Positions 26,026-63,347 of a DNA stretch of 64,000 bases are shown here, in pieces; positions within the stretch are counted from its first letter, which is position 1; each line of letters opens with the position of its first letter. Source of the DNA: an uncultured Gammaproteobacteria bacterium (GTDB lineage Bacteria; Patescibacteriota; Microgenomatia; Levybacterales; GWA1-39-11); assembly GCA_964448725.1 (NCBI GenBank), contig CAYVAJ010000001.1, positions 71,525 through 135,524 on the forward strand, written 5' to 3'. The position numbers and the translations under genes were made by a program. The notes under the pieces are model-generated. The model was not told the origin of the DNA and did not search any database. It was given only the letters and a program-made list of their open reading frames with translations.

Positions 26026-27126
26026 ATGAAAGCACAGCTGCTAATTGAAAATATAGAGCCTTTTTTATCATCACTTGCTAAAGCACTCCCCAACCATTCA
26101 CCTGTTCCTGTGCTTTTAAATATCTTAATCGAAGCAACACACAAAGGAATATACATCTCTGCAACCGACTTAGAACTGGGGATAAAAGTAAAAGTTAATG
26201 GCAAAATAGATGAAGAAGGTTCTGTAACTGTGCCAGGAAAACAATTTATAGAAATTATTAACTCTCTTCCCAAAGGTAAAGTTACATTAACATACGAAAA
26301 AGAAGCGGTAACCCTTGAATCATCTGGTGGAAAAATAGTCTTGCAAACTATTCCAAAAGAAGAGTTCCCAAATCTTTTTGAAGAAAAAGGTGAAAAAGTC
26401 TACAGCTTTTCAAAGGCAGAGCTTAAAGATATTTTTACAAAAATTATATTTGCAGCATCAACAGACGACTCAAGGCCTGAGCTTACAGGGGTATATATTT
26501 CCCAAAAAGAAGATCACATAGACTTTGTTGCTACTGATGGGTATCGTCTTTCACTAAAGAGGGTTTCTGGTAAGCAAATATTAGAGACTGATAATGGAAT
26601 TATTGTCTCGTCTAAATTTATTGCCGAAGCGTTAACACTCAATAGTGATACCATGGATTTTTATGTGTATTCAGAGGGGAATCAGGTGCTTTTAGAAGCA
26701 GATAATACTATTTTAGTCGGTAGACTTATTCAAGGTAACTTTCCTAACTATGAGCGTGTTATTCCTCAAGAGGGCTCTACCAGTGCAGTGATTGATATTG
26801 AAGAGTTCTCAAAATCAATAAAGCTTGCAGCAGTTTTTGCTCGTGAAAGTGCAAATATTGTGCGGATTAGAATTGCAGATAAACAACTAAGCCTCTTTTC
26901 TCGTTCATCAGGAATTGGAGAAGGGGATATTCAAATTGCCGTTGAACAGACAGGTGAGGACAATGAAATTGCATTTAATGTAAAATTCTTAAGCGATCTA
27001 CTGAGAGTGGCTGGTGAGAAAAGAATTACACTTGCTATTAACGGCCCTCTTGAGTCTGCGCTTTTTACCCTTGAAAAAGATACCGACTTTCTGCACGTTA
27101 TCATGCCTGTTCGAGTGCAAGAGTAA
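26026..27126 (+). CDS. dnaN: DNA polymerase III beta sliding clamp
   Basis: 366 aa; three-domain clamp pattern (LLNILIEATHKGIYISATDLELGIKV ... VRVQE). Confidence 0.9.
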   Translation: MKAQLLIENIEPFLSSLAKALPNHSPVPVLLNILIEATHKGIYISATDLELGIKVKVNGKIDEEGSVTVPGKQFIEIINSLPKGKVTLTYEKEAVTLESSGGKIVLQTIPKEEFPNLFEEKGEKVYSFSKAELKDIFTKIIFAASTDDSRPELTGVYISQKEDHIDFVATDGYRLSLKRVSGKQILETDNGIIVSSKFIAEALTLNSDTMDFYVYSEGNQVLLEADNTILVGRLIQGNFPNYERVIPQEGSTSAVIDIEEFSKSIKLAAVFARESANIVRIRIADKQLSLFSRSSGIGEGDIQIAVEQTGEDNEIAFNVKFLSDLLRVAGEKRITLAINGPLESALFTLEKDTDFLHVIMPVRVQE

Positions 27127-29753: not shown

Positions 29754-30659
29754 TTATCCGCAGATATTGTGTTCTCGAGGAAATACTGCGCCTGGGGAAA
29801 GCTCATAATGGAGATGGACTCCTGTACTATACCCAGTATTACCCATTCCTCCGAGATAATCACCTTTTTTTACTGTCTGCCCTTGTCGCAGATGAGAAAC
29901 GCTATTTGAAAGAAGATGACCATACAATGCCCATGTTCCATTTCCTTCAATGATTATATGGGTTCCGTACCCATTTCCGGAACAGAGATTGTAGTAGGTA
30001 TTACATCCGGTAACAGTAAGAGTAGTGATCACTCCATCAAGAGTTGCATAAATAGGTGTCCCTTCAGCCATTACAATATCAACTGCGTTTAATGACCCAT
30101 GAGTAAATCCTCCTGAGTAGGGACATTGTGCAATATCAAATCTTCCGTTAACTGGCCATCCCCCCAGTGTATTAGGATCAATACTTCCTATAGGAGAAGA
30201 GTTTGGTTGTTCTGTAGTAGGATTACCAACTCGTACTCTTACTCTTTCACTTGCCTGTCTTTCGGGAGACGAAGGAGGGAGTCCTTCTTGACAGCTTACT
30301 GTTTCACACCAGCCTGTTGTCTGATTACATACTACATTTCCTCCTCCACCAGAAGTGCAGCTCGGAGAAAGAGTCTCACAATATCCAGGTGCTTGACGGC
30401 AGTCTGGACCTCCTGAATTAAGGGTTATGTTTTGTGATTGACAATCTGTATTTGCAGAGCATACTCCTTCCCCTGCAGGTCCTAGATTGCCACAGAAATA
30501 GGGATGAGTTGTAGGGCAGTTGTTGGTAGTTTGCGCAAAACTCGGTTGACTGGTACCAAAATACGCTCCTATAAAGAGTAGGAGAATAGGAAGAATATAC
30601 ATCCAAGAAGAAGATAAGAGGGTTTTGGATAGAAAGGAGCCTATAACTTTACCAACCAT
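29754..30659 (-). CDS. secreted M23/LytM-family metallopeptidase with Cys-rich N-terminal domain
   Basis: C-terminal GYGTHIIIE...ALYGHL...GVHLHYEL (HxxxD / HxH M23 motifs); more than 15 Cys in the N-terminal 120 aa; signal peptide ending in AQ. Confidence 0.75.
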   Translation of the reverse strand: MVGKVIGSFLSKTLLSSSWMYILPILLLFIGAYFGTSQPSFAQTTNNCPTTHPYFCGNLGPAGEGVCSANTDCQSQNITLNSGGPDCRQAPGYCETLSPSCTSGGGGNVVCNQTTGWCETVSCQEGLPPSSPERQASERVRVRVGNPTTEQPNSSPIGSIDPNTLGGWPVNGRFDIAQCPYSGGFTHGSLNAVDIVMAEGTPIYATLDGVITTLTVTGCNTYYNLCSGNGYGTHIIIEGNGTWALYGHLLSNSVSHLRQGQTVKKGDYLGGMGNTGYSTGVHLHYELSPGAVFPREHNICG

Positions 30660-30734
30660 TATTTCATCATAGCAAAATAAAAGACATTCGCACAATTATT
30701 ATAAAAATGAGAAAAATGTTTTTTTGTCTCACAA

Positions 30735-31281: not shown

Positions 31282-33213
31282 TTATTCCGGTATTGTTCCC
31301 CACAGATGATCCGCACACGCCCAGTACTCAAAGGGCCCAGCGTTTCCTGGTTCAAATAATAGTTTATTATAATTTATTGCATTAGATGTCTGCTTTCTCC
31401 AGTCTACATCTCCATGGTCAAACTCGTTTGCTCTCCCTCTTCCCATTTGATATAGCCCCCATGCTCCTGCGGGGTCAGGGGTTCCGATACTCTCCTGAGA
31501 TGCATAGGCATTTGGATTAAAACCTGATTCACACGGAATAATATTATTAAACCATTCATCGGCATATTGTGGGTCAAGCTCTTTGAGTAGTGTATAGAGT
31601 TTGCTTTTGTCGCTTGGACGTCGGGCAGCAAGCAATGTACATGCAGGATCACCGAAATTCGCTCCAGTATCATCATCATAATAAGGATTATTGAGTGCGT
31701 AGTCTCCCGTATAGTAACCGTCGCAGGTTTCGGCATTGGCAGGTGTTTCTTCTCCTGAGCTAATAGGGGAAGCGCTTCCTCCAACCTCTTCTGCAGTTGC
31801 TTGATTATCTACATAAATATCATTTTGTGTTGGCTTTACGGTTAACAAAAATGTTTGATTAACAGTCTGAGGAGAAGAAGTACTTGAACTACCAGTATAT
31901 ACTTGTGCAAGTGCACTCATTCGATTAGAGAATCTTTGCATGTTTTCTCTATACCAGCTCCCCCAACCTTGCATTGTTGCACTCCAATTATCACGTGCTG
32001 CAATATCACCTGCGATCTCAAGAGAATTAGCTATAGCATTGATAGCTGGGTCCATAAGGAGAATAGCAATTAACTGTCGTGCTTGTGCTTGCTGTGGTGA
32101 TCCGTCTGGTGTTCCTGGAGATCCAGCTTCTTGCACGATTTGCTCTATTGATTTTGCAGGAAATGTGACTGGATTTGTTATCCCGCCTTCATCAATTACT
32201 TTCTGTCCAACTCTTTGGACTGTTGCTGCGTCACCTGATCCATATACAGCAATAAAGTCATCAACCAAATGATCACTTACCTGGGCAACTTGGACTCCCC
32301 CTACTTGCCAACCACCAGAATAGAATCCTCCTGCACAGCCCATGTTAATATTTATGTCTTTCATGTCTCTACAGTTCCAGGCGTAGGGATTTGCGGCTGA
32401 ACCTTCGATTGCGACTGTCCATATAACAGAAAGGAAGGGGTCTGCGTATTTAGGATCGTTATTGTGGACTTTTGATAAAATATAATTTTGATATTGATTG
32501 ACTAGACTCCCGAGTCTATTTGCCCGCTCAATCGTCTCAGGCGCGAAAGCAATATCTGATTCGCCATTGGGTACTGGGAGATTATAAGGTGCTTGGGTAT
32601 ATTTTGTAACATCTATCTGCGTTGTCTGCGCAGGAGGAACAGTTGGTCCGACAATGGTTAGATTATCATTAAGTGACCATTTGACACGTGTTACTTTCCC
32701 TGATGAATCTTTTTCTGCAGTGTAATTTCCTGATGCACTCACAAACTCTGTGTTAGCAGGGATAGGATCATATACCATGACATTTCCGGTTCCGGAATAG
32801 GAAACATTGATGGTATAGGTGATATTTTCTCCGTTACCAATTGCTTCAGGACCAGACTTCTGGAGTGTTACATTTGAAGGCGTTCCATCGCCTGAAACAG
32901 GAGAAGGAGTTGGTTGAGTAGTAAAATAGCTGTCATAATCTGCATCGTCTCCAAGAAGGATAAATATAAGTAGCAGTATGATAATAACAATAATAAGAAT
33001 AACCCAAAACCAAGGATTTGCAGCCATTGCTCCAGTACGTACGACTGTCATGGCAGTTCTAAGTCTTCTAATGTTTCTTGAGGCGTTTTTTATTGATTGA
33101 GCTCGTGCACGTAATCGTCTTGCATTAGAAACTGCATTATTTGCACGATCTATAATACCTTTTCTCTCATCACTTTGTTGTGGCCTTTGTAGAGGGTTTT
33201 CTCCGTTATCCAT
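31282..33213 (-). CDS. VirB1-like lytic transglycosylase (SLT domain) with TM anchor and Ig-like/DUF11-like region
   Basis: C-terminal IIPCESGFNPNAYAS...GAWGLYQM (SLT catalytic Glu and the GLMQ-type motif); N-terminal TM WFWVILIIVIIILLLIFILL; start overlaps the VirB4 stop by 8 nt. Confidence 0.65.
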   Translation of the reverse strand: MDNGENPLQRPQQSDERKGIIDRANNAVSNARRLRARAQSIKNASRNIRRLRTAMTVVRTGAMAANPWFWVILIIVIIILLLIFILLGDDADYDSYFTTQPTPSPVSGDGTPSNVTLQKSGPEAIGNGENITYTINVSYSGTGNVMVYDPIPANTEFVSASGNYTAEKDSSGKVTRVKWSLNDNLTIVGPTVPPAQTTQIDVTKYTQAPYNLPVPNGESDIAFAPETIERANRLGSLVNQYQNYILSKVHNNDPKYADPFLSVIWTVAIEGSAANPYAWNCRDMKDININMGCAGGFYSGGWQVGGVQVAQVSDHLVDDFIAVYGSGDAATVQRVGQKVIDEGGITNPVTFPAKSIEQIVQEAGSPGTPDGSPQQAQARQLIAILLMDPAINAIANSLEIAGDIAARDNWSATMQGWGSWYRENMQRFSNRMSALAQVYTGSSSTSSPQTVNQTFLLTVKPTQNDIYVDNQATAEEVGGSASPISSGEETPANAETCDGYYTGDYALNNPYYDDDTGANFGDPACTLLAARRPSDKSKLYTLLKELDPQYADEWFNNIIPCESGFNPNAYASQESIGTPDPAGAWGLYQMGRGRANEFDHGDVDWRKQTSNAINYNKLLFEPGNAGPFEYWACADHLWGTIPE

Positions 33214-35629
33214 GGTTTAGTGGACTGGTATTTGGTTCTGTACCAGATGCTGACGGAGCAGGAGGTGTTCCAGAGGGCTGTGGAGGGGTGGCTTGCTGGA
33301 CAGTAGCATCTTGAGCAGAAGGTGCGGTATTTTGTGGAACAGATTGTGCAGGGCTACTTTGTGGAGCACCAAATGAGAGTGGAGCCGCAACTGGTTCTGT
33401 TTGCGGTATAGCTGCTGTGTTTTCTAAAGGAGGTGGTGGTGTTTGTTGAGTATTTTCAGGCATAGGAGCAGGAGCGGGAGTGTTTTGTTGGACAGGCTGA
33501 GTTTGAGGAGCGACATTTGGAGTCTCTGATTCCGCAAGAGCTTCTGTAATAGTATCAGGAAGCTTTTCTTCCATTCCTTCATCAGAGGGAGCAGGGCTTG
33601 GTGGTGTTTCTTGTTCTTGTTGATTTAATAAATCTTGTGGTTTTGAAGTAATTAAATCATATTCAAATTGTGACGCAATAAATTGAGCTGAAATATGATT
33701 TTGGCCAGCAAAGAGTAGTCCTTCTCCAACTTGCGCGGTAAGTAGAAATTGTTTTTCTCCCTCAGAAAGGAAAAATGTTTTTGCTAAGGCCTCAACTTCT
33801 GCAGTTCCTTGTTTGAGTAATATTTGAATAGATGAGTTAGACACGATTGCTTTACCGTATTCATTGTTAATAAAATCACCAATATCCTGAGTCAGGGTTG
33901 TCATTCCTAAGTAGTATTTGCGGGCACGTTTTGCGATTCCTTGCAAGAAGCTAGCAGAATCTGGGTATTTCATCATATACCATGCTTCATCGACGATAAG
34001 CAAGCGTTTTTTCAGCTTATTACGAACACGGCTCCAGATAAAGTCTAAAATAACATGCATAGCAATAGGGCGAAGCGAGTCTTCTAACTGCTTGATAGAA
34101 AAGACCGTTAACTGACTGCGAATATCATAGTTTGTCTGGGCATTAAGCAGTCCTGCAAATCCTCCTTTAACAAATTTTTCAAGTCGGAATGCAAGTTCTT
34201 TTGCTTCTGCTTCCTCCATGTTAAGGAGTGTTTTATAGAGGTCTTCTAAAATCGGCGGTTCTTTATCATAGGTTGATGGGTCAGGAGTAATTCCTTTCTG
34301 TTTGTAGACGAGTACGAGAGAGCGATCCAGAATTGCTTCCTGAGTTGGAGTCATATCCCCAAGCATTGTTTTGAGTAATCCATGTAAGGAGAGAATTTTA
34401 ATTCCTAACTGAGCTTCAGTTCTGTCTTCAGACAAAAGTGCAAAAGGATTTATTTTTACTGCTGAAGTTTTTGAAAAATCTATGTACTCACCCTCAAGTG
34501 AATCGCAGAGTGTTCGGTACTCGTCTTCAGGGTCAATAATCAAAATCTCTGCATCAAACATCATCTGTCTCAATACTTCAAGCTTAACCAAGAAAGATTT
34601 ACCAGAACCTGATTTACCAAAAACGACTTCATTGGCATTTTCAAATGAAAATCGGTCTACAATGACCAGAGAGTTATTGAGGGTATTTACTCCATAAAGA
34701 ATCCCATCTGGTTGAGAAATTTCATATGAAGTAAAAGGAAATGTTGACGCCACAGAGGTTGTATCCATATTACGGGTAACAAAAAGCTTGTCTGAACCAT
34801 ATGGCATAGTAGTTTTAAAACCTTCTTCCATTTGCAGTGTCGCAGCTTTGAGCAACAACATGTTTGAAGCCAACAGAGTCTGAAGTTGTTTTGATTTTTC
34901 ATTGAGTTCAGGAATGGTGTCAGCGCTAATTGTGACATAGAGACCAAATTGGAAGAAACGTTCTAGTCCTCGTGCAAGTTCTTCTCGCAAAGCAATAGCA
35001 TCTTCTAAGGAAGCCTGAACTTTTGGATCAGGTTCAAGCCCAGCTTTATGATCTGCATCAATTGTTGCTTCCATTTCAGCAATTTTTCGTCTGAGGTTTG
35101 CAAGCACATCTTTACTTTCAATAGGATAGATAAACATCGAAATATTCATCGTCTCTTTATGATCAATTAAAATAGAAAGCCAATTAGGAGATACCTCACG
35201 AGGATAATCAGCCACAAAAAAGGTGCGGAAAAATCGGTCACCAACTCGTACATGCTTAAAATCTATTTCAGCAGAAGCTGGTGCAATGACATCTGCAAGA
35301 GATACAGATCCTTGACGTAGTGCTTCAAGTGTTGCGTGTTGTGCTGCTGCTGATTGTTGGGGTGTAGCACCTTTTGGCATAGCAGCTGCTTGAGGCTGAG
35401 GGTTCTGCTGCATTGTCTGTGGTTGTCCGTTTGCTTGTGGAATAGGTTGAGGAATCTGAGAAGCTGCACCTGCTTGAAGAACAGGCTGTTGCATTTGTGG
35501 AGCAGGAGGATTTCCAGGCATTTGCTGTGTTCCTGGTTGTATAGGCGGCACTCCTGGAGCAGATGCAGGCATGCCCGTCTGGGCAACGGGTTGTGATTGT
35601 GTAGGCTTTTTTTTAAATAAGTCAAACAT
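33206..35629 (-). CDS. VirB4/TrbE/CagE-family T4SS ATPase (ATPase portion) with PQ-rich N- and C-terminal low-complexity extensions
   Basis: Walker A VVFGKSGSGKSFLV, Walker B RLLIVDEAWYMM, and the IAPASAEIDFKHVRVGDRFFRTFFVADYPREV region typical of VirB4; about 100 aa of P/Q-rich sequence at the N-terminus and about 140 aa at the C-terminus. Confidence 0.85.
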   Translation of the reverse strand: MFDLFKKKPTQSQPVAQTGMPASAPGVPPIQPGTQQMPGNPPAPQMQQPVLQAGAASQIPQPIPQANGQPQTMQQNPQPQAAAMPKGATPQQSAAAQHATLEALRQGSVSLADVIAPASAEIDFKHVRVGDRFFRTFFVADYPREVSPNWLSILIDHKETMNISMFIYPIESKDVLANLRRKIAEMEATIDADHKAGLEPDPKVQASLEDAIALREELARGLERFFQFGLYVTISADTIPELNEKSKQLQTLLASNMLLLKAATLQMEEGFKTTMPYGSDKLFVTRNMDTTSVASTFPFTSYEISQPDGILYGVNTLNNSLVIVDRFSFENANEVVFGKSGSGKSFLVKLEVLRQMMFDAEILIIDPEDEYRTLCDSLEGEYIDFSKTSAVKINPFALLSEDRTEAQLGIKILSLHGLLKTMLGDMTPTQEAILDRSLVLVYKQKGITPDPSTYDKEPPILEDLYKTLLNMEEAEAKELAFRLEKFVKGGFAGLLNAQTNYDIRSQLTVFSIKQLEDSLRPIAMHVILDFIWSRVRNKLKKRLLIVDEAWYMMKYPDSASFLQGIAKRARKYYLGMTTLTQDIGDFINNEYGKAIVSNSSIQILLKQGTAEVEALAKTFFLSEGEKQFLLTAQVGEGLLFAGQNHISAQFIASQFEYDLITSKPQDLLNQQEQETPPSPAPSDEGMEEKLPDTITEALAESETPNVAPQTQPVQQNTPAPAPMPENTQQTPPPPLENTAAIPQTEPVAAPLSFGAPQSSPAQSVPQNTAPSAQDATVQQATPPQPSGTPPAPSASGTEPNTSPLNHG

Positions 35630-35723
35630 GGGCAGTAAATTTAAACTTAAAATATAAAATTAAAAAACAAAAATGCTATCAATACTTAGGATCATTTTAA
35701 GCTCTCAGTTTTACATTTTACAT

Positions 35724-36347
35724 TTACAATATAATATTTGTTACATCTTCAGATTGAAAATCGAGTGAAACTGTTTCCTGGTTATAGAGTTCATACAGTA
35801 CCTTTGCTACTTCGCTTGATTCAAGTGGTCGTGCAGTAAGTCCCATACGTTGAATCTGACTAATTACTCCATTTTGCTTACTTATAACTCCATCACGAAT
35901 TCGTTCCTGTAGTGTTTGTTTCTTGTTATTTGGAGCAGTAGGACCAAGTTCTAAAGAAGAAAAAGGAATAACAACATAGATTTTTTTGTTCAGTAAATTT
36001 TCTCCTTTAACCAGTTCCTGAATAAACTGCTTATACATAACTAAATGCTCTGATATACGGGGATCTTGTGCTTTTTCTACTTTAGCTTCAATCATCTCTA
36101 AATAATCAGTCATATCTACTTTTTTAGAAACAATAAAAATTTGTACTGCAGATGAGAGTGAGTTAAGAAATGACATAAATCCATAAATGCGGGCATTTTG
36201 TTCATCTGCTGAGAGAAGGAAGAAGTTAACAGACGATACCTCTAAAATTGAAGAGGCATTATTTCCTTTGAGGAAAAGAATTCCGTCTTTAATATCTTCT
36301 ACTTCTGTAAACTGTTGAGTTGTTGAGTTGATCTTTGCTTTTGCCAT
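35724..36347 (-). CDS. VirB4 N-terminal-domain-like protein (separate ORF; split VirB4)
   Basis: IKDGILFLKGNNASSILEVSSVNFFLLSADEQNARIYGFMSFLNSLSSAVQIFIVSKKVDMTDYL resembles the N-terminus of Gram-positive VirB4 homologs (TraE/PrgJ/TcpF-like). A 94-bp gap and a different frame separate it from the ATPase ORF. Confidence 0.5.
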   Translation of the reverse strand: MAKAKINSTTQQFTEVEDIKDGILFLKGNNASSILEVSSVNFFLLSADEQNARIYGFMSFLNSLSSAVQIFIVSKKVDMTDYLEMIEAKVEKAQDPRISEHLVMYKQFIQELVKGENLLNKKIYVVIPFSSLELGPTAPNNKKQTLQERIRDGVISKQNGVISQIQRMGLTARPLESSEVAKVLYELYNQETVSLDFQSEDVTNIIL

Positions 36348-36404
36348 AGTTCTAATAATATCAGTATACCGTATTCTGGATGCAGTTATTAAGAATTTTT
36401 ACTG

Positions 36405-37724
36405 TCATACCGTAGATACAGGACTTTGTGTTGGTGCTGGCATATTTCCAAACAAGTCTCTTCGTAATTTTTCCCTTTGGTCAATTGAAGTTATCTCAAG
36501 CGGGTTAAATATTTCTCCTTTCATCTCAACTTGTACTGTCTCAAATTCATGATTTTTTCCAGGATCGTCAAAATATATTTTATATGTACCATTAGGAAGC
36601 GGAGTAGCAGAGATAAATTGACCTAAAGCATTTGTTTTAAATGCTCTTACTGGTATCTCATTTGTATCAACTACTTCAACAAGAATGTTTTGAAGCACTT
36701 TTCCACGTGGATCTTTAATTATTCCTAGTACAATATTAGGAATATCAGGAAGAGAGGGGAATCCTGAAGTAAGATTGGATTGTGGGGTGATAGTTTTTAC
36801 AGTATTTGCTTTTGGCGCTTCTTTCTGTGTTGGGGTAACTGGTGTGGCTTGGGAAACTTGCTTTGCTTGCTGTAATACTTTTTGCTGATAAGATGCTGTT
36901 TGCCCTAATGATTCTGCTAATTTTTGCTCTAGATCTCGGACTTTTTGTTCAAGCTCGGCAGTGTATCCTGCTGTTTGTTCGTATGTCCGAATATCTTGAA
37001 TCTCTTTTTTAATCTCTGCAACTTCATCTGCTGCTTTTGGCGCAGGAGAAGCAACTGGTTTTACTACTTCTGTTTGTGCCATTTTTTGGTTAATTTCTTC
37101 TTCTGATACCTGAGGTAATACAGGTTTAACAGGATTGACTACTTCCTGTTCTTTTATAACTGGCTGGACTCTTACTGGCATAACTTTTTTCGTTTCGTTT
37201 GCAAGTGGGGTTGGTGTAACAATAGCTGTTCCAGGATTATCAAAGGAAGCTTTTAAGCTTGCAAAGTACTGCATCTCCTGATTGTCAGGTCTGAAATATG
37301 AGTTGCGCAGTGCACTTGCCAATGCTTGTCTTTTTGCAGTATCTTTTGACTGTTGTGGCGCTTGTTTCGGTTGCTGCGGTTGTTGCACTGTTTTTGGAGG
37401 TTTTAAAAATTCATACTGTGAGAGATCAATTCCTTTTTTGCGATAAATAAACTGATTTTCTCGTGGTACTGACCGGGCAAAATAAATAAGCATTTTATCA
37501 AGTGGTCTACCACCTACTGGTACAAAAGCAAGTGCTACACCAATAAGACCAAAAATTATCATAAGTGGGTACTTGAGCAAGAAGTGGAGAGGAGAGACAA
37601 AGGTAATGGTACAAAAAATTCCCGCTGCAACAACATATGCAAATTGCTTAACAGTCATTGAACCGATAATTTTAAATTTAAACCCAGTAACGTCTTGAGG
37701 AATTGGATGATTCTCCATATACAT
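36405..37724 (-). CDS. PrgI/VirB3-like membrane protein with long C-terminal extension (PQ linker, coiled coil, beta-sandwich domain)
   Basis: N-terminal HPIPQDVTGFKFKIIGSMTVKQFAYVVAAGIF matches the PrgI-family opening motif and is followed by a TM hairpin. The ORF track starts at a TTG; ATG 37724 is chosen. Confidence 0.5.
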   Translation of the reverse strand: MYMENHPIPQDVTGFKFKIIGSMTVKQFAYVVAAGIFCTITFVSPLHFLLKYPLMIIFGLIGVALAFVPVGGRPLDKMLIYFARSVPRENQFIYRKKGIDLSQYEFLKPPKTVQQPQQPKQAPQQSKDTAKRQALASALRNSYFRPDNQEMQYFASLKASFDNPGTAIVTPTPLANETKKVMPVRVQPVIKEQEVVNPVKPVLPQVSEEEINQKMAQTEVVKPVASPAPKAADEVAEIKKEIQDIRTYEQTAGYTAELEQKVRDLEQKLAESLGQTASYQQKVLQQAKQVSQATPVTPTQKEAPKANTVKTITPQSNLTSGFPSLPDIPNIVLGIIKDPRGKVLQNILVEVVDTNEIPVRAFKTNALGQFISATPLPNGTYKIYFDDPGKNHEFETVQVEMKGEIFNPLEITSIDQREKLRRDLFGNMPAPTQSPVSTV

Positions 37725-38039
37725 CAGCGTATAACGTGAAAATTTTAGATTCAAGCATCTCAAACTGTGTCAAAGGACAACAAAAGGTGTGAAAAGGAGA
37801 TAAAAAGCCTTAAAGTGGGCAGAGAAGAGATGGATTGTAGGTATTATGTAATGTCTGTCACTAAAAAATACAATGGAGTATGTTAACATCTGGGTAACTG
37901 AATAGAATTGCTGCCCATCGCGAGAGTTTAATTGTTGTGGCGTGATAGTACAACTGTCCTGGCTCTTTTTTACTGATATATAAGTAATTGCTTATAAAAA
38001 TCAGAATCTTTTTCCTATGCTCATAACATACAAAAAATA

Positions 38040-38933
38040 TTATTTTGTAGCGCTCGAGACAATGCTGAAAGTGCCTGCAATAAGCATCAATAATAATAAC
38101 CCAGCAAGCTGTGTATTGTCAGATTCAATAAGTTTTTTCAAACGGTTAGCTTCTTCAGGGTTATCATTACTAAGTTCAATAATAATTTCTTCCATTCGGT
38201 TTTGACGAAATAAATTTAACATTTCTTGGGCACGGGGATTCTTTTCTGCAAGAGATTCAATCTTTTCTTTATAGATTGTGCTTAAGTTAGTTATAGATTC
38301 TTGCAGGTTTTCTGGTAAATCTTGTACTGCCGTCTCTCCATTTTGGAGAATATCAATATATGTTTGAAATATTACTTGCTCATCGTCAGTAAACTGTGAT
38401 GCAATTACATCTCTTTCTGCTACGAGATAGGCAAATGCAACTTCTTTACGAGGAAGGACTTGAGTGATTAAGTTGCCATCAGGCATTTTAATGGTACAGG
38501 TAAGTGTACTCTCATCTCCGTTAGTGATTCCTTGGATTTCACCATTCTGCCCATTTATGGGAATCTGCATTGGGTTCTCACCAACCATTTTATATTTTTG
38601 GTCACTGTAACCCAACAAAAGTTCAGTCCCTTGTTTCAGTTTTTTCTGCGCTGGATCATCAATTTCCTCAAGCTGCTTTCCGTTAAATTCTTCAGATGCG
38701 GTAATTATCATAAGTGCACCAATTTCTTGAATTTGTTGAGCATATATAGCAGTTCTTGATTGCTCATCCTCTATACTTTCCTCCATAGTATCGGTATCAT
38801 TGGGTATATTTTCTTGAGGTTCTGAGTTATCAGTATTATCGTTTTGCTCTACATTTCCCGACAATGTACCAGCTTCTGAAGAGTCATTCGTATTAATCTC
38901 AGCTTCAGTCGGATGTGGTGACTGTTCTTCCAT
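38040..38933 (-). CDS. hypothetical acidic protein with C-terminal TM anchor
   Basis: About 300 aa, D/E/N-rich N-terminus, C-terminal LAGLLLLMLIAGTFSIVSSATK helix. Start at ATG 38933 (the track uses a TTG). Confidence 0.4.
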   Translation of the reverse strand: MEEQSPHPTEAEINTNDSSEAGTLSGNVEQNDNTDNSEPQENIPNDTDTMEESIEDEQSRTAIYAQQIQEIGALMIITASEEFNGKQLEEIDDPAQKKLKQGTELLLGYSDQKYKMVGENPMQIPINGQNGEIQGITNGDESTLTCTIKMPDGNLITQVLPRKEVAFAYLVAERDVIASQFTDDEQVIFQTYIDILQNGETAVQDLPENLQESITNLSTIYKEKIESLAEKNPRAQEMLNLFRQNRMEEIIIELSNDNPEEANRLKKLIESDNTQLAGLLLLMLIAGTFSIVSSATK

Positions 38934-38984: not shown

Positions 38985-41801
38985 ATGCCAGACATAATCC
39001 CAGAGCAGCAACCTGTTCAATCTTCATCAAGCGGAGTTTCTACTATGGAGAATCGTTTCCGTGCTGTTACATTAAAGCGAAATGATTTTATTAAGGAAAT
39101 AGATACGGGATTGATAATAAACGATAAAAATAAAGAGGTGGGGAGAAAAAATGAACATGTAACGTTTAGTGAGGATCTTCGCCAGCAATACTCAACATTT
39201 CTCGATAATTATGTTCGCAACCTTATTGAAATTCAGAACAAGGACAGAACGTTTTTGGAGACAAAAAGTAGAATACAAGACAAATTAATGCTTAATCTTT
39301 TATCTTCAGAAGAAAAGGACCCCCAAGGAAGAGCAATTACTACTCAAGAGGGATGGTCTCTAAGAAAGGTAGATGAGGCGAAAATCCAACAGTTTTTAGA
39401 AACTCAACAGGGATGGACGCTTGCAAATATGGCGCTTGAACAATATACCTCAATGATGATGTTTGCACTCTCACTCGAAGCATCTATTGTGCCTGAAGGA
39501 GATAGGGATAAGTTATTAAGAAATTTTAAGATTGATAATGGTATCAATCAAGGAGCGTTCTGGAAATGGGCAGCAAACAGACGTCCCCCGATCTATCCTG
39601 AAAAACCTGGTTTTTTTAAGAGAGGTAAAAGGACGGAAATTAAGCCTAACCCTGACGTACTGTTGGCGATGAAAAATAACCCTGAAGAAGCAAAGTTTAT
39701 TTGGGAGCTTACTGGAATTGATGTTGATGATTTTACCATTGATCCAGTAACTGGAGAGGTTATAGCAAATGCCGGTGTTAAGATAACTGACGCAGTTGAG
39801 GAGAAACAAAAAAGTATTATTGGAAATTTGAAGTCAAGACAGCAATTTTACGAGTCTTTAGGAATACCTTCAAAACAGTTGGACGCAATGGATTCTCAAT
39901 TTATATATAGCTATGTAAATGGAAGCTCTGAAGAAATTCCAACCCATGTACACCAAAGGATTATTGACCGTTTCAAACCAAACAGAACAATAGTTGATGC
40001 AGCAGGATTACACCCCGGTGAACCTGGTTTTGATCCTAACACCGTTAATGTAGAAGAAGTATTGCAAAAATACTTAAAGGTAAAACGAGATATATTTGTG
40101 CGGCTTGCTCAGGAAGCTGTTGCGCGGCAAGTACAAGGTACTGAAGACTTAAGTAAATCACTTACTGTAATTCGTACTGCGTTGGAAGATGTAAGAAAGG
40201 GTAGAGAGGGAACTATTGCACAGCGAAGAAATAAGGAAGCACAGGAAAGAATTGGGGTACTAGAAAAAGAAAAGCATGAGATTAGTGAAAAGAGAAGACC
40301 GTTGGAAGAGTTCGCTGAAAAACAAAAAGCAGTTCAGCAAACAGTCAAAGAACTTTCCGAATCATATGGTGTAAATATCCCTGCAGGAAGCGATTTTGAG
40401 ACAACGGTAACTACTGAACTTAATACTATTCAAAACCAGATTGAAGGAGTGACTCCTCCCGGTGGCGGAGCACGTGCAGGGGGTATTGAGCAGCAAATTG
40501 AGCAAGAAAGGCTTGCAATGCAAAATTGGATCGATACTCAAACAAATGCAGCTATTGCAGCACGTGTTGGTGCGTTGGGAGGAAGGGGAAGTCTACCTCA
40601 AAGTGAGATAACTAATATTGTAACTGGATATAGGGAGACTGCTGAGAGTTCATATGGAGCTCGTATTCAACGGTTAGAGGCGCAAAAAAGACAACTAGAA
40701 GAACGGCGGAATAATCTTAATACTCTTTTGTCTCGAAATAGAAACGCAGTTAGAGAAGAACGAGAATCTGAACAAAAAATTGTTAACCAAGCTCCAAAGG
40801 AGCTTGATGCTATGAGAGCATCGTATGAATTAGTTGTAAATTCTGCCGGGGCAACAATTACCGCAGACATGCTTGAAAACAGGAATGTTGACCAATTAAT
40901 TCCGCTATTAACTGCAGCGCCATATAATCAACCGAATACGACTCCTGAACAACAAGCTGCACTGCGTGAATTAGTTATCAGAGCAAAAACTGAACTGAAG
41001 GGAGAAAGACAAGAAGGATTTGAGCCAAGTCCAGCAAACCAGACACAAGAGTACAACGATATTATTAATCAAGCAGGTGCAACTATTACATCAAATGATC
41101 TTCTTTCTCTCTCAGATCAAGAGATTGAAAATAGGCTTACGCAACCTCCATATAATTTTCCTGCTGCAGGTATTCATGATCGTATAAATCTTGCCCGTGC
41201 AGAAGCACAAAAGAAACTGCGAATTCGTTATGCGGTACTGCTTGATGAACGGGAATCAGACCTAGGCAACCAAATCAAACAATTGGAAGATAAAATGAAA
41301 TCACAGACAAGCTTTGATAGAGAAGAGAAAATTCTACAAACAGCAGAAAGAGCGATAAGCAGGCAAGAAGAGGTATTTACTAATGCGATTGATATTGTTA
41401 GTGACATTGGTCGGTATACAAAGGTTGATCATGTGACAAATGCCGATACTACATACTCAGAGTCAGAAAGAGCAGCAGGTTATTCTAAAGGGTATTATGA
41501 ACTAATGGATTATCTTTTTTCTTATCAAGAAAACCCCGATATATCTGATAGAAATGAGTATTTTCAGGCCATTCAAGAATCACTTCCTCCTGAAAAACTT
41601 GCTGTAATTCTTAATGAGCGATTAAATCTTCGGCTAATTCCTGTTCCGCCTGGTTTTGTTGGTCCACTAGGAGCAAATATGATCAATCTTGAAAATGTAT
41701 TTCAACGAATGAGTAGAAAGAAATTATCTCCACGTGACATGCAAAGGACATTGTCAGATGTTATTATAAGATTGAAAGACGAAGCGATAGCAATAGTATG
41801 A
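38985..41801 (+). CDS. large hypothetical coiled-coil protein (938 aa)
   Basis: Long ORF with consistent codon usage and heptad-like E/K/Q-rich segments; no recognised catalytic motif. Confidence 0.5.
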   Translation: MPDIIPEQQPVQSSSSGVSTMENRFRAVTLKRNDFIKEIDTGLIINDKNKEVGRKNEHVTFSEDLRQQYSTFLDNYVRNLIEIQNKDRTFLETKSRIQDKLMLNLLSSEEKDPQGRAITTQEGWSLRKVDEAKIQQFLETQQGWTLANMALEQYTSMMMFALSLEASIVPEGDRDKLLRNFKIDNGINQGAFWKWAANRRPPIYPEKPGFFKRGKRTEIKPNPDVLLAMKNNPEEAKFIWELTGIDVDDFTIDPVTGEVIANAGVKITDAVEEKQKSIIGNLKSRQQFYESLGIPSKQLDAMDSQFIYSYVNGSSEEIPTHVHQRIIDRFKPNRTIVDAAGLHPGEPGFDPNTVNVEEVLQKYLKVKRDIFVRLAQEAVARQVQGTEDLSKSLTVIRTALEDVRKGREGTIAQRRNKEAQERIGVLEKEKHEISEKRRPLEEFAEKQKAVQQTVKELSESYGVNIPAGSDFETTVTTELNTIQNQIEGVTPPGGGARAGGIEQQIEQERLAMQNWIDTQTNAAIAARVGALGGRGSLPQSEITNIVTGYRETAESSYGARIQRLEAQKRQLEERRNNLNTLLSRNRNAVREERESEQKIVNQAPKELDAMRASYELVVNSAGATITADMLENRNVDQLIPLLTAAPYNQPNTTPEQQAALRELVIRAKTELKGERQEGFEPSPANQTQEYNDIINQAGATITSNDLLSLSDQEIENRLTQPPYNFPAAGIHDRINLARAEAQKKLRIRYAVLLDERESDLGNQIKQLEDKMKSQTSFDREEKILQTAERAISRQEEVFTNAIDIVSDIGRYTKVDHVTNADTTYSESERAAGYSKGYYELMDYLFSYQENPDISDRNEYFQAIQESLPPEKLAVILNERLNLRLIPVPPGFVGPLGANMINLENVFQRMSRKKLSPRDMQRTLSDVIIRLKDEAIAIV

Positions 41802-42168: not shown

Positions 42169-42870
42169 ATGCATATACTCTTACTCATTGCTGAGTTAAT
42201 TTTCCTTTTTATAACCTCACGTTTTATTTCCAAATACCTTTTCATGCTTTTTTATAATCTCTTTAGAAAAGAGAGTGTTGCTGCGCGAGTAGTTGCATTT
42301 ATCTTTTTCCCAGGTACTCTTATCCACGAGCTTGCGCATTTTCTGATGGCAAAAACTTTATTCGTTCGTACAGGAAATATAGAATTGATGCCTGAAATAC
42401 AAGGAGATACTCTAAAATTAGGAAGCGTTCAAATTGCAAAAACTGATATTTTGAGACGTTTTTTAATTGGTGTTGCACCTCTTTTGATCGGGTCTATTCT
42501 TCTTATCATTATAATTTACTCATTTTTTAATTTTTTCCCTTTAACGAGCTTTGAATGGAGCTGGCAATATGTTTTATCAGTTCTGGTCGTGTTGTATGGA
42601 ATTTTTGTGATAACAAATACCATGTTTTCAAGTAAAAAAGATATGGAAGGAGCATTAGGCTTATTTATACTGTTAGTATTTTCTCTTTTAGTAATTTTTG
42701 TAGCTGGGAGAGGAGAGTGGGTAGTGAGAGTCATGGAAAATATTATTAACAATCCAACTATTCAGCAATATGTCAATAAAATAACTATATTCTTGTTTTT
42801 CCCAGTCATTATTAACGGTGTCGTGCTTCTCACCTACAATGGATTGAGGAAATTGAGAAAAAGGAATTAA
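42169..42870 (+). CDS. polytopic membrane protein with intramembrane HExxH motif (putative zincin-like membrane peptidase)
   Basis: FFPGTLIHELAHFLMAK within a hydrophobic helix; 5-6 predicted TM helices. Confidence 0.4.
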   Translation: MHILLLIAELIFLFITSRFISKYLFMLFYNLFRKESVAARVVAFIFFPGTLIHELAHFLMAKTLFVRTGNIELMPEIQGDTLKLGSVQIAKTDILRRFLIGVAPLLIGSILLIIIIYSFFNFFPLTSFEWSWQYVLSVLVVLYGIFVITNTMFSSKKDMEGALGLFILLVFSLLVIFVAGRGEWVVRVMENIINNPTIQQYVNKITIFLFFPVIINGVVLLTYNGLRKLRKRN

Positions 42871-43220
42871 AAACCTGGATCAATTATTATTCCTCCATCT
42901 GGATTTCCGCCAACTACATTTTGGTTAACACCTAATATTTCAAAAAAACCATTAAAAAATGCAAATGATAAGAGTATAAAAATAAGACCTATTATTGCAA
43001 ATGTTAATGTTTTTTTTGCAGAGCTGATTGCTTCAGGATCTCCTTGAGATGTAACAAATCTAATACCTGATATGATAATAAAATATAGAGCAACAATTGA
43101 TGACAGTATTATTGCAGCATTAATTAGATTTGAAAAAAGAGGCCAGATACAGCGAAGTGTCGCTACTTGTGCTTCACCCCCCTCTAAGCATCCTTCCCAT
43201 GGTCGTGTAAACAAATCCAT
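42867..43220 (-). CDS. T4SS pilin-like protein (CPR-type VirB2/TrbC-like), paralog 1
   Basis: Shared C-terminal motif IISGIRFVTSQGDPEAISSAKKTLTFAIIGLIFILLSF. Its stop overlaps the stop of the convergent gene (TTAA). Confidence 0.5.
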   Translation of the reverse strand: MDLFTRPWEGCLEGGEAQVATLRCIWPLFSNLINAAIILSSIVALYFIIISGIRFVTSQGDPEAISSAKKTLTFAIIGLIFILLSFAFFNGFFEILGVNQNVVGGNPDGGIIIDPGF

Positions 43221-43284
43221 AAAATAATTATAGTAACTTGCTCGGAAAAAATCTATTTATAATCGAAAGGTAAAAGGATAAAAA

Positions 43285-43719
43285 TTAATCAGTAATTTCA
43301 ACTTGATTTGGTATTAACTTTGGAATTTCAAGTGTATTAATTGATCCTAGCCCAAATATTTCAAGCACAAAATTTAAAATAACATACGCAAGAATCACAA
43401 GGATAAGGCCAATAATAGCAGCAATAATTTGTCCTCGTGCCTCAGAAACTTTTTCTTTATCTCCGCCTGAGACAATCCATTTAATACCACCCCAAATAAG
43501 CCAAATGAGTGCAGCAAGTATTGCAATAAAGAAAAGAGCATTGATTGCAAATCGTACTACTGTATTAATATCCAAATCTATCCCAAACATACCAGGTGGG
43601 CGTAGGTCTACCTTCTCATTACCATCAATTACTGGTTGAGCAAATGCAGGGACTACTGTTTGAAGGTAGACTGCGCTGGAAAGAGTAAGTGCGCCTAGTG
43701 GTCTGAATAATTTTTTCAT
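43285..43719 (-). CDS. T4SS pilin-like protein, paralog 2 (with signal peptide)
   Basis: MKKLFRPLGALTLSSAVYLQTVVPAFAQ signal peptide, then WGGIKWIVSGGDKEKVSEARGQIIAAIIGLILVILAY. Confidence 0.6.
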   Translation of the reverse strand: MKKLFRPLGALTLSSAVYLQTVVPAFAQPVIDGNEKVDLRPPGMFGIDLDINTVVRFAINALFFIAILAALIWLIWGGIKWIVSGGDKEKVSEARGQIIAAIIGLILVILAYVILNFVLEIFGLGSINTLEIPKLIPNQVEITD

Positions 43720-43810
43720 GTCTATATTTATTAGAGCAGTTTTTAAAATGCTTGTCAATAGAGTAATTTATTATCTGTTAGGAAAGGTTAACTCTTAAGT
43801 AATTAAATCC

Positions 43811-44182
43811 CTAGTCAGTACGTGTAAACGGGAATATGCTAATGCCCATAATGCTCCCGACTGTGCTTACTATAACAAACGAGAGAAGGATAACAATAAT
43901 TCCAATGATCGCATAGATGATTGTTTTACGGGCTTTATCAAGTTTTTCTTTGTCGCCACCAGATGTGATCCAGATAATGCCTCCCCTAATGAGGAAAACT
44001 AATGTAACAATTATACCGATAAAGAAAAGAGCGGATATGCCAAAGTTAATAATATCACTTAGCCCAAGCTGATCTTCTAGACTCAAAGGATCTTGAATTG
44101 GTTGATCCTGTCCTGGTAATTTGAGGGCGAGTAATTTTTCTTTCATACTATCTAGTAAAGCCTGGATAGAAAAAAATGTCAA
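43811..44182 (-). CDS. T4SS pilin-like protein, paralog 3
   Basis: IRGGIIWITSGGDKEKLDKARKTIIYAIIGIIVILLSF. TTG start at 44182, or ATG at 44146. Confidence 0.55.
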   Translation of the reverse strand: MTFFSIQALLDSMKEKLLALKLPGQDQPIQDPLSLEDQLGLSDIINFGISALFFIGIIVTLVFLIRGGIIWITSGGDKEKLDKARKTIIYAIIGIIVILLSFVIVSTVGSIMGISIFPFTRTD

Positions 44183-44214
44183 TATAGATGTATGAAAATG
44201 ATAGATAATATTTG

Positions 44215-44237
44215 ACGCCTGCGATTAGCAGGCGTCT
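44215..44237 (-). terminator. perfect hairpin downstream of the lipoprotein gene
   Basis: GACGCCTGCgattaGCAGGCGTC: 9-bp stem, 5-nt loop. The flanking U-run is weak. Confidence 0.35.
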
Positions 44238-44242
44238 GAAAG

Positions 44243-44809
44243 TTACCGATCTGGTAGTGCTTGAAAAGAGGCAAGCATCCTGGGAATTATCCCATTTTCA
44301 GTATATTTCTCAATACTGCCTGGTATTCCTTGGAATCTTACCTCGACTGCTCCATGCGTGCCTTGAGGATCTGTTCCTGTAATTATTGCGATTAAGAACT
44401 CATCCCCTTCGCTTGTTATCCCTTCTAGGATCTGAATATCTCCGTTTTGTTCTTCTCGGATAACATCAATGCGGCTAGAACTTGGACTTCTGAGATAGTA
44501 TGCTATATAACAGTCTCTCCAATCTTTTAAAGTTCCACCATCTGCTTCAATGTCATCAAGCTTACAATGACTTGTAGTTGCAGAGCCGAATCCAACCCTA
44601 AAGACCGATTTGTCACTGTCTGGAGGGATGATGTATGTATATCGACCTTGAGATTCCTCTTTCCAGGATAGAGGCCTATCAAGGGTTACCCTATAGAACA
44701 TCATTGTATACCACTCTTCCTTGGAGGTACTGTTATTCACAGCGCCTTCTGCGTTACTACCACACGCAGCAAGTAGAAGTATGGACAGAACAGCAAAAAA
44801 CCGTACCAT
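44243..44809 (-). CDS. lipoprotein, hypothetical
   Basis: MVRFFAVLSILLLAACGSN lipobox. Own promoter TTGACT-16-TATACT, a ~100-nt leader and a good SD (AAGGAGA). GC looks higher than neighbouring genes. Confidence 0.55.
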   Translation of the reverse strand: MVRFFAVLSILLLAACGSNAEGAVNNSTSKEEWYTMMFYRVTLDRPLSWKEESQGRYTYIIPPDSDKSVFRVGFGSATTSHCKLDDIEADGGTLKDWRDCYIAYYLRSPSSSRIDVIREEQNGDIQILEGITSEGDEFLIAIITGTDPQGTHGAVEVRFQGIPGSIEKYTENGIIPRMLASFQALPDR

Positions 44810-44959
44810 CGTCTGTCTCCTTTCTGAAGAAGTCGTACAATGTGGCGAAAGGTACAACCGACACGGTGTTAACGAGCAAGATAGGAAGAATTTGTTGCCT
44901 CTCTTCCAAATCTTTGTGATAGTATAACAGAAATCTACAACAAGTCAATACTATAGGTT

Positions 44960-62226: not shown

Positions 62227-62955
62227 ATGTGGAAAACTCTAGTAAACCTTATATTCCCTAAATACTGTGTTGCATGCCACCGAGTAGGAAATTATATCTG
62301 TGATGCGTGTTTTTCTTACATTCGCTTTGATCCTACTCCTATCTGTCCAGTCTGTAATAAGCACTCAATAGAAGGAGCAACCCATCCAAAATGTCAAACG
62401 TCTTATAGCATTGATGGCCTTGTTTCAGCAGTTGTATATGCTGGAGTGATAAAACGTTTAGTGTACCAATATAAATACGCACCATATGTGTCAGATTTGA
62501 AAGATGATATAGGAAAGCTAATGTGCGAAAGCTTAGAACAAAATGAAATATTCCATATGGTATTAAATGATAATCCATTGTTAGTACCTGTTCCACTCCA
62601 CCAGAGGAGACTTTCTGCAAGAGGGTATAATCATGCATTACTCCTCTGCTCTTATGTCGCACAATATTTTGAGTTGAAAACTGTTGATGATCTTATTGTT
62701 AGAAATCGTGCTACAAAGCCGCAGTTTAAACTCTCAAAAAAACAGCGCTACTCTAACGTAAAGAATGCATTTTCAGTAACTGAAAAACAACACATTGCGA
62801 TAGCAGGAAAAACAATAGTACTGGTTGACGATGTGGCAACCACCTGCTCTACTCTCAGTGAGGTTGCAAAGGTTTTAAAAAGACAAGGAGCAAAAGAAGT
62901 ATGGGGAGTTGTGTTTGCGCGGGAAGATACATTTGGTGGAGATGGGGGGCAATGA
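62227..62955 (+). CDS. comFC: ComF-family competence protein (double zinc ribbon + phosphoribosyltransferase domain)
   Basis: N-terminal CVACHRVGNYICDACF...CPVCNK; C-terminal PRTase motif IVLVDDVATTCSTL. The 3' end overlaps the ssrA 3' end on the opposite strand. Confidence 0.7.
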   Translation: MWKTLVNLIFPKYCVACHRVGNYICDACFSYIRFDPTPICPVCNKHSIEGATHPKCQTSYSIDGLVSAVVYAGVIKRLVYQYKYAPYVSDLKDDIGKLMCESLEQNEIFHMVLNDNPLLVPVPLHQRRLSARGYNHALLLCSYVAQYFELKTVDDLIVRNRATKPQFKLSKKQRYSNVKNAFSVTEKQHIAIAGKTIVLVDDVATTCSTLSEVAKVLKRQGAKEVWGVVFAREDTFGGDGGQ

Positions 62956-63347
62956 ACCCCCGTCCAATGAATGTGCATTAAAAACATCTACAAGCGTAGT
63001 CGATTATTGAAATTCATTATACCCGAACGAGAATCGACACCCGAAGATATAACTAAGGTCAAAGTTAGGATAAAAAGAAGACCAGCCTCTTTACCTTTTT
63101 CTCAACTAAATTTTTGCCTGAAACGCCCCGTTGAGAAAAGGCGTAGCAGACAGCTCGTGCCTATTAAGCAGCGAATGCCATAGCAGGTGCGAAACCTGTA
63201 TTTGGCATAAGGTCAGCAGCGAACCGCTGAACCTTGCGGCGGATGGTTGTTCCATCAGCATGTATGTTTTGAACCTGTTTTGCGACTATGATTCAAAGTC
63301 GGCTTGCAGTTTTTAAAGAACGATTCTTGTCGATACAATACATCCCC
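62934..63347 (-). ncRNA. ssrA: tmRNA (ssrA)
   Basis: Minus strand: 5' GGGGATG...ATCGACAAG; tag-reading frame ends ...GCT ATG GCA TTC GCT GCT TAA TAG (AMAFAA**); 3' tRNA-like end GGACGGGGGTTCATTGCCCCCCATCTCCACCA. Seven acceptor base pairs form with the 5' end; located directly downstream of smpB. Confidence 0.7.

Follow-up and report, generated by a model that had tools for sequence, protein, structure and literature searches.

A Likely Intact Two-Gene VirB4 Motor with Proline/Glutamine-Rich Tails in a Type IV Secretion Locus of Candidatus Levybacteria

The cytoplasmic ATPase in the machinery of a type IV secretion system (T4SS) is VirB4. In the 64,000-nucleotide stretch of contig CAYVAJ010000001.1 (assembly GCA_964448725.1, positions 71,525 to 135,524) that was analysed here and is called the window below, VirB4 is encoded by two adjacent genes of 207 and 807 amino acids (aa), the second of which carries long proline/glutamine-rich (P/Q-rich) tails. 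We consider it probable that this locus is an intact, ordinary two-gene VirB4 motor of a Candidatus Levybacteria T4SS and that the tails most likely are flexible cytoplasmic tethers. The first gene corresponds to the opening subdomain of the VirB4 N-terminal domain, and the second gene provides the second half of this domain together with the ATPase domain that has the Walker A/B motifs. What looks like a split VirB4 is the usual two-gene form of the motor in Patescibacteria and some Gram-positive plasmids, which has been described before, and not a broken gene. It is nothing new in itself, and the window is a typical Levybacteria example of the published organisation. The VirB4 tails and their motifs are the sole feature here for which we found no published description, and they are a detail of a known system.

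The Two Open Reading Frames and the Breakpoint

The coordinates of the features are listed in Table 1. Both open reading frames (ORFs) lie on the minus strand and start with ATG, and the 207-aa ORF follows the PrgI gene and precedes the ATPase gene. The positions of the ORFs, their separation by 94 bp and their different frames agreed with a preliminary description of the locus, which had been made from the sequence alone. Stop codons are present in all three frames of the spacer. The Logan assembly of run SRR7082966 is identical to the window at positions 32976-36629, which hold both ORFs and the gap. The promoter and terminator scans of positions 33000-38100, spacer included, gave no signal exceeding the shuffled background, and the Rfam and tRNA searches of the VirB4 region yielded no family and no tRNA. 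Recoding or read-through across the gap was ruled out by the stops in all frames and by the variable gaps and frames in the orthologues.

The 207-aa ORF had been likened by eye to the first ~200 residues of VirB4, and the VirB4 profiles supported this. It aligned to positions 11-180 of the 752-position CD1110 VirB4 model (NCBIfam) and to positions 101-281 of the Mbov_0397 VirB4 model (NCBIfam). The NCBIfam TrsD/TraD model NF041427 matched it with an E value of 5.7e-9 and 36.1 bits, the model cut-off being 200 bits. The Pfam search of this ORF gave no match; the label PF26593 TraC-like comes from precomputed annotations only, where it is carried by the identical protein P0001 and by the gene in locus L053. 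A PDB sequence search with the TrsD profile gave no meaningful match. Meanwhile, the AlphaFold2 (AF2) model of the ORF was of moderate quality, with a predicted local distance difference test score (pLDDT) of 67, and the 14 best PDB matches found with it by Foldseek were all R388 TrwK/VirB4 (probability 0.95-1.0, template modelling score 0.37-0.45). Judged by homology, the 207-aa protein is a free-standing counterpart of the VirB4 N-terminal domain over its first ~180-200 residues, and we call it TrsD-like.

The 807-aa ORF was confirmed as the remainder of VirB4 with the Walker A and B motifs. It matched positions 174-732 of the CD1110 VirB4 model NF045971 (E 6e-120, 401.7 bits; cut-off 325). 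As this match begins at model position 174 of 752, the complete N-terminal domain is not on the 807-aa polypeptide, and the two ORFs cover one VirB4 model in a complementary manner (11-180 and 174-732). Pfam detected P-loop_TraG (E 1.5e-33), AAA_10 and DUF87, and residues 305-661 matched 4AG5, a solved structure of the VirB4 C-terminal domain (E 5.8e-44). The layout of the protein is thus an N-terminal motif, a P/Q-rich linker, the second half of the N-terminal domain, the ATPase domain and a tail rich in P, Q and T. Against the 10 closest orthologues, the VirB4 core is 91.5% identical with zero gaps. The pre-core segment AMPKGATPQQSAAAQHATLEALRQGSVSLADVIAP, at which the VirB4 homology resumes, is conserved in the alignment of close orthologues, and a helix is predicted at residues 92-106. 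The AF2 model of the whole 807-aa ORF was poor (mean pLDDT 54.5) and was not used for fold searches.

The cleanest definition of the breakpoint, obtained from sequence alignment, is given by P0259, a fused 787-aa VirB4 of another Patescibacteria lineage which is present in several assemblies. Its residues 6-203 align to the 207-aa ORF (37% identity, E 1e-39), and residues 115-674 of the 807-aa ORF pair with its residues 213-774 (57% identity). Only ~9 residues lie between the two blocks; there is no P/Q-rich linker, and the C-terminal tail is 22 aa long. The alignment of both ORFs to the VirB4 profiles likewise placed the breakpoint as it had been described. The N-terminal domain of the R388 VirB4 comprises residues 15-400 (PMC9259494), which puts the break within this domain, ~200 residues from its start, instead of at its border with the C-terminal domain. 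Compared with the single-chain VirB4 proteins (R388 TrwK, the CD1110 family, P0259 and that of the Carboxydocella plasmid pCCELLA01), the two window ORFs summed have the same domain content. However, the ~9-residue junction is replaced in the window by a stop, 94 bp and a linker of ~100 aa, and the single-chain proteins lack the long tails of the window ATPase.

Three strands, a helix, a strand, two helices, a strand, a helix and a strand are predicted in this order for the TrsD-like protein, and the same predicted order recurs in residues 120-262 of the ATPase ORF (34844-35272). This hints, at the level of predicted structure, that the VirB4 N-terminal domain could be an internal duplication, with the split falling between both copies. 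The comparison of TrsD with residues 100-300 of the ATPase ORF by hhalign showed no significant similarity, and the idea is mentioned here in passing.

Conservation of the Two-Gene Arrangement

The same arrangement was found in the relatives. For the 207-aa protein, 635 homologues were detected, and the best 120 of them that were listed are all free-standing proteins of ~200-235 aa ending with the conserved ...KN[VI]I[LVI]; those of the 120 that have a named source come from Candidatus Levybacteria. Each of the 39 complete loci, which come from different Levybacteria species, has the ATPase gene directly behind the TrsD gene. The gaps between the two genes vary from -35 to +121 nt and include all three relative frames, and both the stop that follows ...KN[VI]I[LVI] and the ATPase start motif are conserved. 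The contig scan with the TrsD alignment reached Levybacteria only, and its patterns are lineage-specific. Meanwhile, among 80 metagenome loci, which were picked through the ATPase core, none was fused and 69 had an upstream TrsD-like ORF; in 10 of the 11 loci without it, VirB4 lies within 460 nt of a contig end.

The arrangement is also present outside Levybacteria. In other Patescibacteria loci, the PrgI, TrsD-like and VirB4 genes adjoin dnaA/dnaN, and the same three genes are carried by Firmicutes plasmids of Geobacillus, C. botulinum, Priestia, B. thuringiensis (Bt407) and pSK41. A fused version occurs in Firmicutes as well, in Carboxydocella.

These results bear on the suggestion that the locus is a recently inactivated pseudogene, or that an assembly or sequencing frameshift has cut a single virB4 in two. 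The 94-bp distance, the different frames and the existence of single-chain forms in some Patescibacteria and Firmicutes (P0259; Carboxydocella) would fit it. However, the gap has stops in every frame and is no single indel, the core is gapless with intact Walker motifs, the second public assembly has the identical sequence, and the close relatives share the break instead of having a single intact ORF. As the two-gene arrangement is conserved and already published, the pseudogene is refuted and the split is not new; we leave this explanation a negligible probability.

Relation to Known Systems

The organisation has been described in a 2025 survey (Quinonero-Coronel et al., PMC12102498), which relates TrsD to the VirB4 N-terminus by remote homology; the split is not unusual. 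According to the same work, no T4SS component is commoner in Patescibacteria than TrsD, 1,664 of its 2,272 homologues adjoin virB4, and the TrsD copy of S. epibionticum ML1 is essential (PMC12102498). The statement of TrsD-VirB4 homology rests on this survey, which cites Guglielmini 2014; the main text of the latter does not contain "TrsD". In the chromosomal T4SS of Patescibacteria (PMC12102498; Wang et al. 2023, PMC10633639), TrsD lies by virB4, PrgI/VirB3 is upstream, VirB2-like pilins form arrays, dnaA/dnaN are near and there is no relaxase nearby. The window shows every one of these features, and no difference in organisation was seen.

The second related system is TrsC-TrsD-TrsE (TraC-TraD-TraE) of the staphylococcal conjugative plasmids pSK41/pGO1 (MPF_FATA), which has the same gene order as the window: a VirB3-like gene, a TrsD of ~200 aa and a DUF87 VirB4 of ~670 aa without the TrsD-equivalent region. 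The pSK41 TrsD and the 207-aa ORF share 25% identity over 178 aa (E 1e-5), and the TrsE start MIMAFLKKKK resembles MFDLFKKK of the window. Unlike that of the window, the pSK41 system is conjugative, lies on a plasmid and includes a relaxase and a VirD4-like coupling protein, and its TrsE has an N-terminal extension of ~20 aa and an acidic C-terminal tail of ~40 aa, with no P/Q-rich low complexity. We conclude that the locus belongs to the chromosomal T4SS of Patescibacteria described in 2023-2025 and to the TrsD/TrsE-type split of pSK41/pGO1.

The P/Q-Rich Tails and Their Motifs

The tails of the 807-aa ORF are as they were first described: the MFDLFKKK start is followed by a P/Q/A-rich N-terminal stretch, and the protein ends with a P/Q-rich tail. 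No secondary structure was predicted in either the N-terminal linker (pLDDT 36-48) or the C-terminal tail. In comparison with the 10 closest orthologues, the linker has ~36% identity with 29% gapped positions and the C-terminal tail has 34% identity with 27% gapped positions. Among the close orthologues, islands in and beside this variable sequence are all conserved, namely the N-terminal motif, segment 83-117, EGMEEKLPDTITEALAES, PLSFG and the C-terminal end. A search for DNA tandem repeats under the tails found none.

All of the best 120 ATPase homologues have a P/Q/A-rich N-terminal extension (median 44 aa, range 20-108) and a P/Q/T-rich C-terminal tail (median 97 aa, range 57-267). Among these orthologues, the composition of the tails is conserved and their sequence is not. 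With an N-terminal extension of 97 aa and a C-terminal tail of 142 aa, the window ATPase falls towards the upper end of these lengths. In the metagenome sample, the median lengths of the N-terminal extension and the C-terminal tail were 48 and 82 aa for the Levybacteria-type loci and 20 and 36 aa for the VirB4 of other Patescibacteria; the VirB4 proteins of Firmicutes have N-terminal extensions of ~20-28 aa and C-terminal tails of 3-40 aa. Long VirB4 tails are thus mainly a Levybacteria trait. Apart from VirB4, the window has P/Q-rich low complexity only in the PrgI-like protein, the 643-aa protein downstream and a single giant surface protein.

The motifs at the ends were counted among the same 120 orthologues. 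The start M[FL] is present in 114 of them and KK beginning at positions 4-7 in 112, while 30 end with NG or HG (background N 5%, G 3%). In 41 Levybacteria loci and the window, which together have 359 ORFs of 150 aa or more, the strict pattern ^M[FL]x(0-4)KK was found in 35 ORFs, and all 35 are the ATPase gene; therefore, the motif is not a general start-of-gene bias. TrsE-type ATPases start similarly, with MIMAFLKKKK in pSK41, MFKFKKEK in Geobacillus, MKLFNKREK in C. botulinum and MSFFKKKK in Bt407, and ATPases of other Patescibacteria begin alike, e.g., MKLNLPFLKPKK. The tail island EEKLPDTITEALE, residues 1-8 and the C-terminal end may be candidate docking motifs onto TrsD, PrgI or a neighbouring VirB4.

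Tails of a comparable kind were observed on another protein. In other Patescibacteria (loci L042-L046, proteins P0241-P0389), the TrsD-like protein has a C-terminal tail of 60-500 aa rich in P, Q, T and S, which ends with LPPLPEI/LPPIAEIK in 28 representatives and with PFVVEELxDDYG in 17. Two VirB4 C-terminal tails in these lineages end with ...HSIDDY...

Neither PMC12102498 nor PMC10633639 mentions the long P/Q-rich tails or their motifs, and the word "disordered" occurs 0 times in each. Our literature search on disordered or low-complexity tails of VirB4 or of Patescibacteria secretion proteins found no paper.

Possible Roles of the Tails

In the R388 system, VirB4 is on the cytoplasmic side of the membrane, VirB3 wraps around the VirB4 N-terminal domain, and this domain mediates the VirB4-VirB4 dimer contacts (PMC9259494). 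No hydrophobic segment was found in the 207-aa protein, and neither a hydrophobic segment nor a signal-like N-terminus was found in the ATPase ORF. Because of this and of the R388 VirB4/VirB3 layout (PMC9259494), we infer that TrsD and the ATPase would reassemble non-covalently at the inner membrane face, on the PrgI/VirB3 platform. The P/Q-rich segments are lineage-specific, fast-evolving and probably intrinsically disordered extensions of a cytoplasmic protein, spacing M-[FL]-x-KK, EEKLPDTITxALE, PLSFG and the ...N-H/N-G end away from the folded core. Such a flexible tether could present the short motifs to partners, which may be TrsD, PrgI, the membrane or substrates. The FtsZ C-terminal linker with its peptide and the SSB linker with its acidic tip are known combinations of a variable disordered spacer and a short conserved peptide. 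The VirB4 tails are similar to them in that a compositionally biased spacer of variable length has a short conserved peptide at its end or within it. Tethering is the most likely role of the tails, and it would work in a like manner. The proteins are unrelated, and the likeness is one of action and not a family assignment. The preliminary description had named interaction modules among the possibilities, and this is the most plausible reading of the tails because conserved short motifs lie inside them.

Several points weigh against the tether interpretation and the assignment of the locus. The hypervariable length and sequence of the tails are equally expected from neutral low-complexity expansion, and the poor ATPase model makes the low pLDDT of the tails weak evidence of disorder by itself. 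The N-terminus of pSK41 TrsD (MMMFKKK) and that of the fused Carboxydocella protein (MSLLGKK) are also of the hydrophobic-plus-KK type; therefore, the N-terminal motif is not unique to the detached ATPase half. In addition, the window TrsD scores only ~36 bits with the NF041427 model, whose cut-off is 200 bits.

As a tentative extension, possible rather than probable, the tails could be a working part of Patescibacteria motors in general. They would be peptide-tipped tethers that hold the split ATPase, and in other lineages TrsD, to the TrsD/PrgI platform or capture substrates, partly replacing the coupling protein missing from the loci, and they would have been greatly lengthened in Levybacteria. 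The peptides concerned may be M-[FL]-x-KK at the N-terminus, LPPLPEI/PFVVEELxDDYG at the TrsD C-termini and HSIDDY/N-H-G at the VirB4 C-termini.

The first alternative, which we regard as rather unlikely, is that the tails are neutral low-complexity expansions at the free termini made by the split, with the motifs as residual conservation or translation-initiation preferences. The extreme variation in length and sequence fits this explanation, as do the fused P0259, which works without tails, and the far shorter VirB4 tails in other Patescibacteria. However, in a lineage of small genomes the tails are kept in all of the 120 and 39 orthologues, their composition is conserved, and discrete islands stand inside the variable sequence. 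The N-terminal motif, absent from the other ORFs of the same loci, is present in the distant Firmicutes TrsE-type ATPases, and the TrsD tails of other lineages, similar in kind, have conserved terminal peptides.

It is improbable that the P/Q-rich tails drive the clustering of secretion machines or the formation of condensates, e.g., at the site of host contact. Multivalency is possible for Q/P-rich disordered regions, 6-12 VirB4 copies per machine would follow from the R388 stoichiometry (PMC9259494), and P/Q-rich segments are found on several T4SS proteins of the locus, but the high proline content and the low number of aromatic residues are at least as compatible with an extended spacer.

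The least tenable account of the tails, and a very improbable one, is that they are extracellular or wall-spanning spacers bridging a thick envelope, as had also been suggested. P/T/Q-rich linkers are typical of the wall-spanning regions of Gram-positive surface proteins, and the neighbouring envelope proteins (the PrgI-like and the 643-aa protein) have P/Q-rich stretches too, but both VirB4 proteins lack membrane segments and an envelope-spanning spacer is therefore unlikely; the tails, moreover, are at both ends of one soluble ATPase, and VirB4 is located on the cytoplasmic side.

The value of the tails as described here is modest. The T4SS genes belong to the few whose necessity for epibiotic life has been shown in Patescibacteria, and the requirement of the T4SS for epibiotic growth is known only for S. 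epibionticum ML1 (PMC10633639; PMC12102498). A two-polypeptide motor with disordered tethers and lineage-specific terminal peptides offers concrete and cheap handles on how such a machine is assembled without a coupling protein. For annotation, pipelines should not mark the TrsD and VirB4 genes as a frameshifted virB4.

Neighbouring Genes and Other Observations in the Window

Table 1. Features of the VirB4 locus and its surroundings (positions in the window)
Feature	Residues	Position	Strand	Remarks
PrgI (VirB3-like) protein, 437 aa		36405..37718	-	upstream gene
TrsD-like / TraC-like protein, 207 aa		35724..36347	-	ends ...DVTNIIL; soluble, without tail
Intergenic spacer		35630..35723		94 bp, AT-rich; separates the 207-aa and 807-aa genes
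VirB4 ATPase gene, 807 aa		33206..35629	-	without TrsD-equivalent subdomain
N-terminal motif MFDLFKKK		35606..35629	-	family pattern M-[FL]-x(0-4)-K-K
P/Q/A-rich low-complexity N-terminal linker	9-83	35381..35605	-	Q 25%, P 24%, A 15%
Conserved pre-core segment AMPKGATPQQSAAAQHATLEALRQGSVSLADVIAP	83-117	35279..35383	-	VirB4 homology resumes here
Conserved VirB4 core	98-665	33635..35338	-	
Walker A GKSGSGKS	338-345	34595-34618	-	
Walker B LLIVDEAW	543-550	33980-34003	-	
P/A/Q/T-rich C-terminal tail	666-807	33209..33634	-	P 22%, A 13%, Q 12%, T 11%
Acidic island EGMEEKLPDTITEALAES of the C-terminal tail	684-701	33527-33580	-	EEKLPDTITxALE
Island PLSFG of the C-terminal tail	750-754	33368-33382	-	
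End of the C-terminal tail ...SPLNHG		33209-33226	-	pattern ...P-x-N-H-G
Membrane-anchored protein, 643 aa, DUF11 repeat		31282..33213	-	downstream; start overlaps VirB4 stop by 8 nt
T4SS pilin array		42867-46675	-	four PF18895 T4SS_pilin ORFs
dnaA		24485-25825	+	
dnaN		26026-27126	+	

The PrgI-like protein upstream of TrsD consists of two membrane helices, a P/Q-rich linker and a C-terminal CarboxypepD_reg-like beta-sandwich domain (Pfam PrgI, E 1.1e-8; CarboxypepD_reg, E 5.9e-6). Its ATG at 37718 agrees with the homologues (MxxHP[IV]PQ) and with the 437-aa gene call in locus L053, and the TTG at 37763, which was the start of the mechanical ORF, is probably wrong. The protein of 437 aa compares with ~100 aa on Firmicutes plasmids, and the same fusion was seen in the Patescibacteria loci L042, L043 and L046.

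The gene of the 643-aa protein holds the position of the cell-wall hydrolase (VirB1-like) gene, and its product has one hydrophobic segment at residues 60-94. The likeness of its C-terminal ...CESGFNPNAY...GAWGLYQM to a lytic transglycosylase was seen by eye only; the searches gave no Pfam SLT and no PDB match.

The pilin ORFs encode proteins of 117, 157 and 123 aa and a 571-aa protein with a C-terminal pilin domain; a 204-aa ORF among them has no assignment. This array agrees with the VirB2-like pilin arrays reported for Microgenomatia. The dnaA/dnaN genes lie ~6 kb from the T4SS genes, with an M23 peptidase and a Big_5 protein between them (29754-30695, minus strand), and their proximity fits the reported placement of the Patescibacteria T4SS near the origin. 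Pfam gave no match for two ORFs by the T4SS genes, 38985-41801 (plus strand, 938 aa) and 48578-53776 (plus strand, 1,732 aa).

At positions 4964-14869 of the plus strand, a giant 3,301-aa protein is encoded with SdrD_B, CBM6/CBM35, CarboxypepD_reg, polysaccharide lyase and dockerin domains and a 188-aa P/Q-rich stretch. It is probably a surface adhesin or a glycan-degrading protein. The tmRNA gene is located at 62934-63347 of the minus strand (Rfam RF00023, 122.8 bits); ARAGORN did not report it. The ORF directly upstream of it (63510-63950, minus strand) may be a candidate smpB. Finally, many GTDB-representative records with clear Levybacteria T4SS loci (L001, L004-L007, L010 and others) bear the title "uncultured Gammaproteobacteria bacterium", and on these Levybacteria records the label "Gammaproteobacteria" is evidently a placeholder or wrong.

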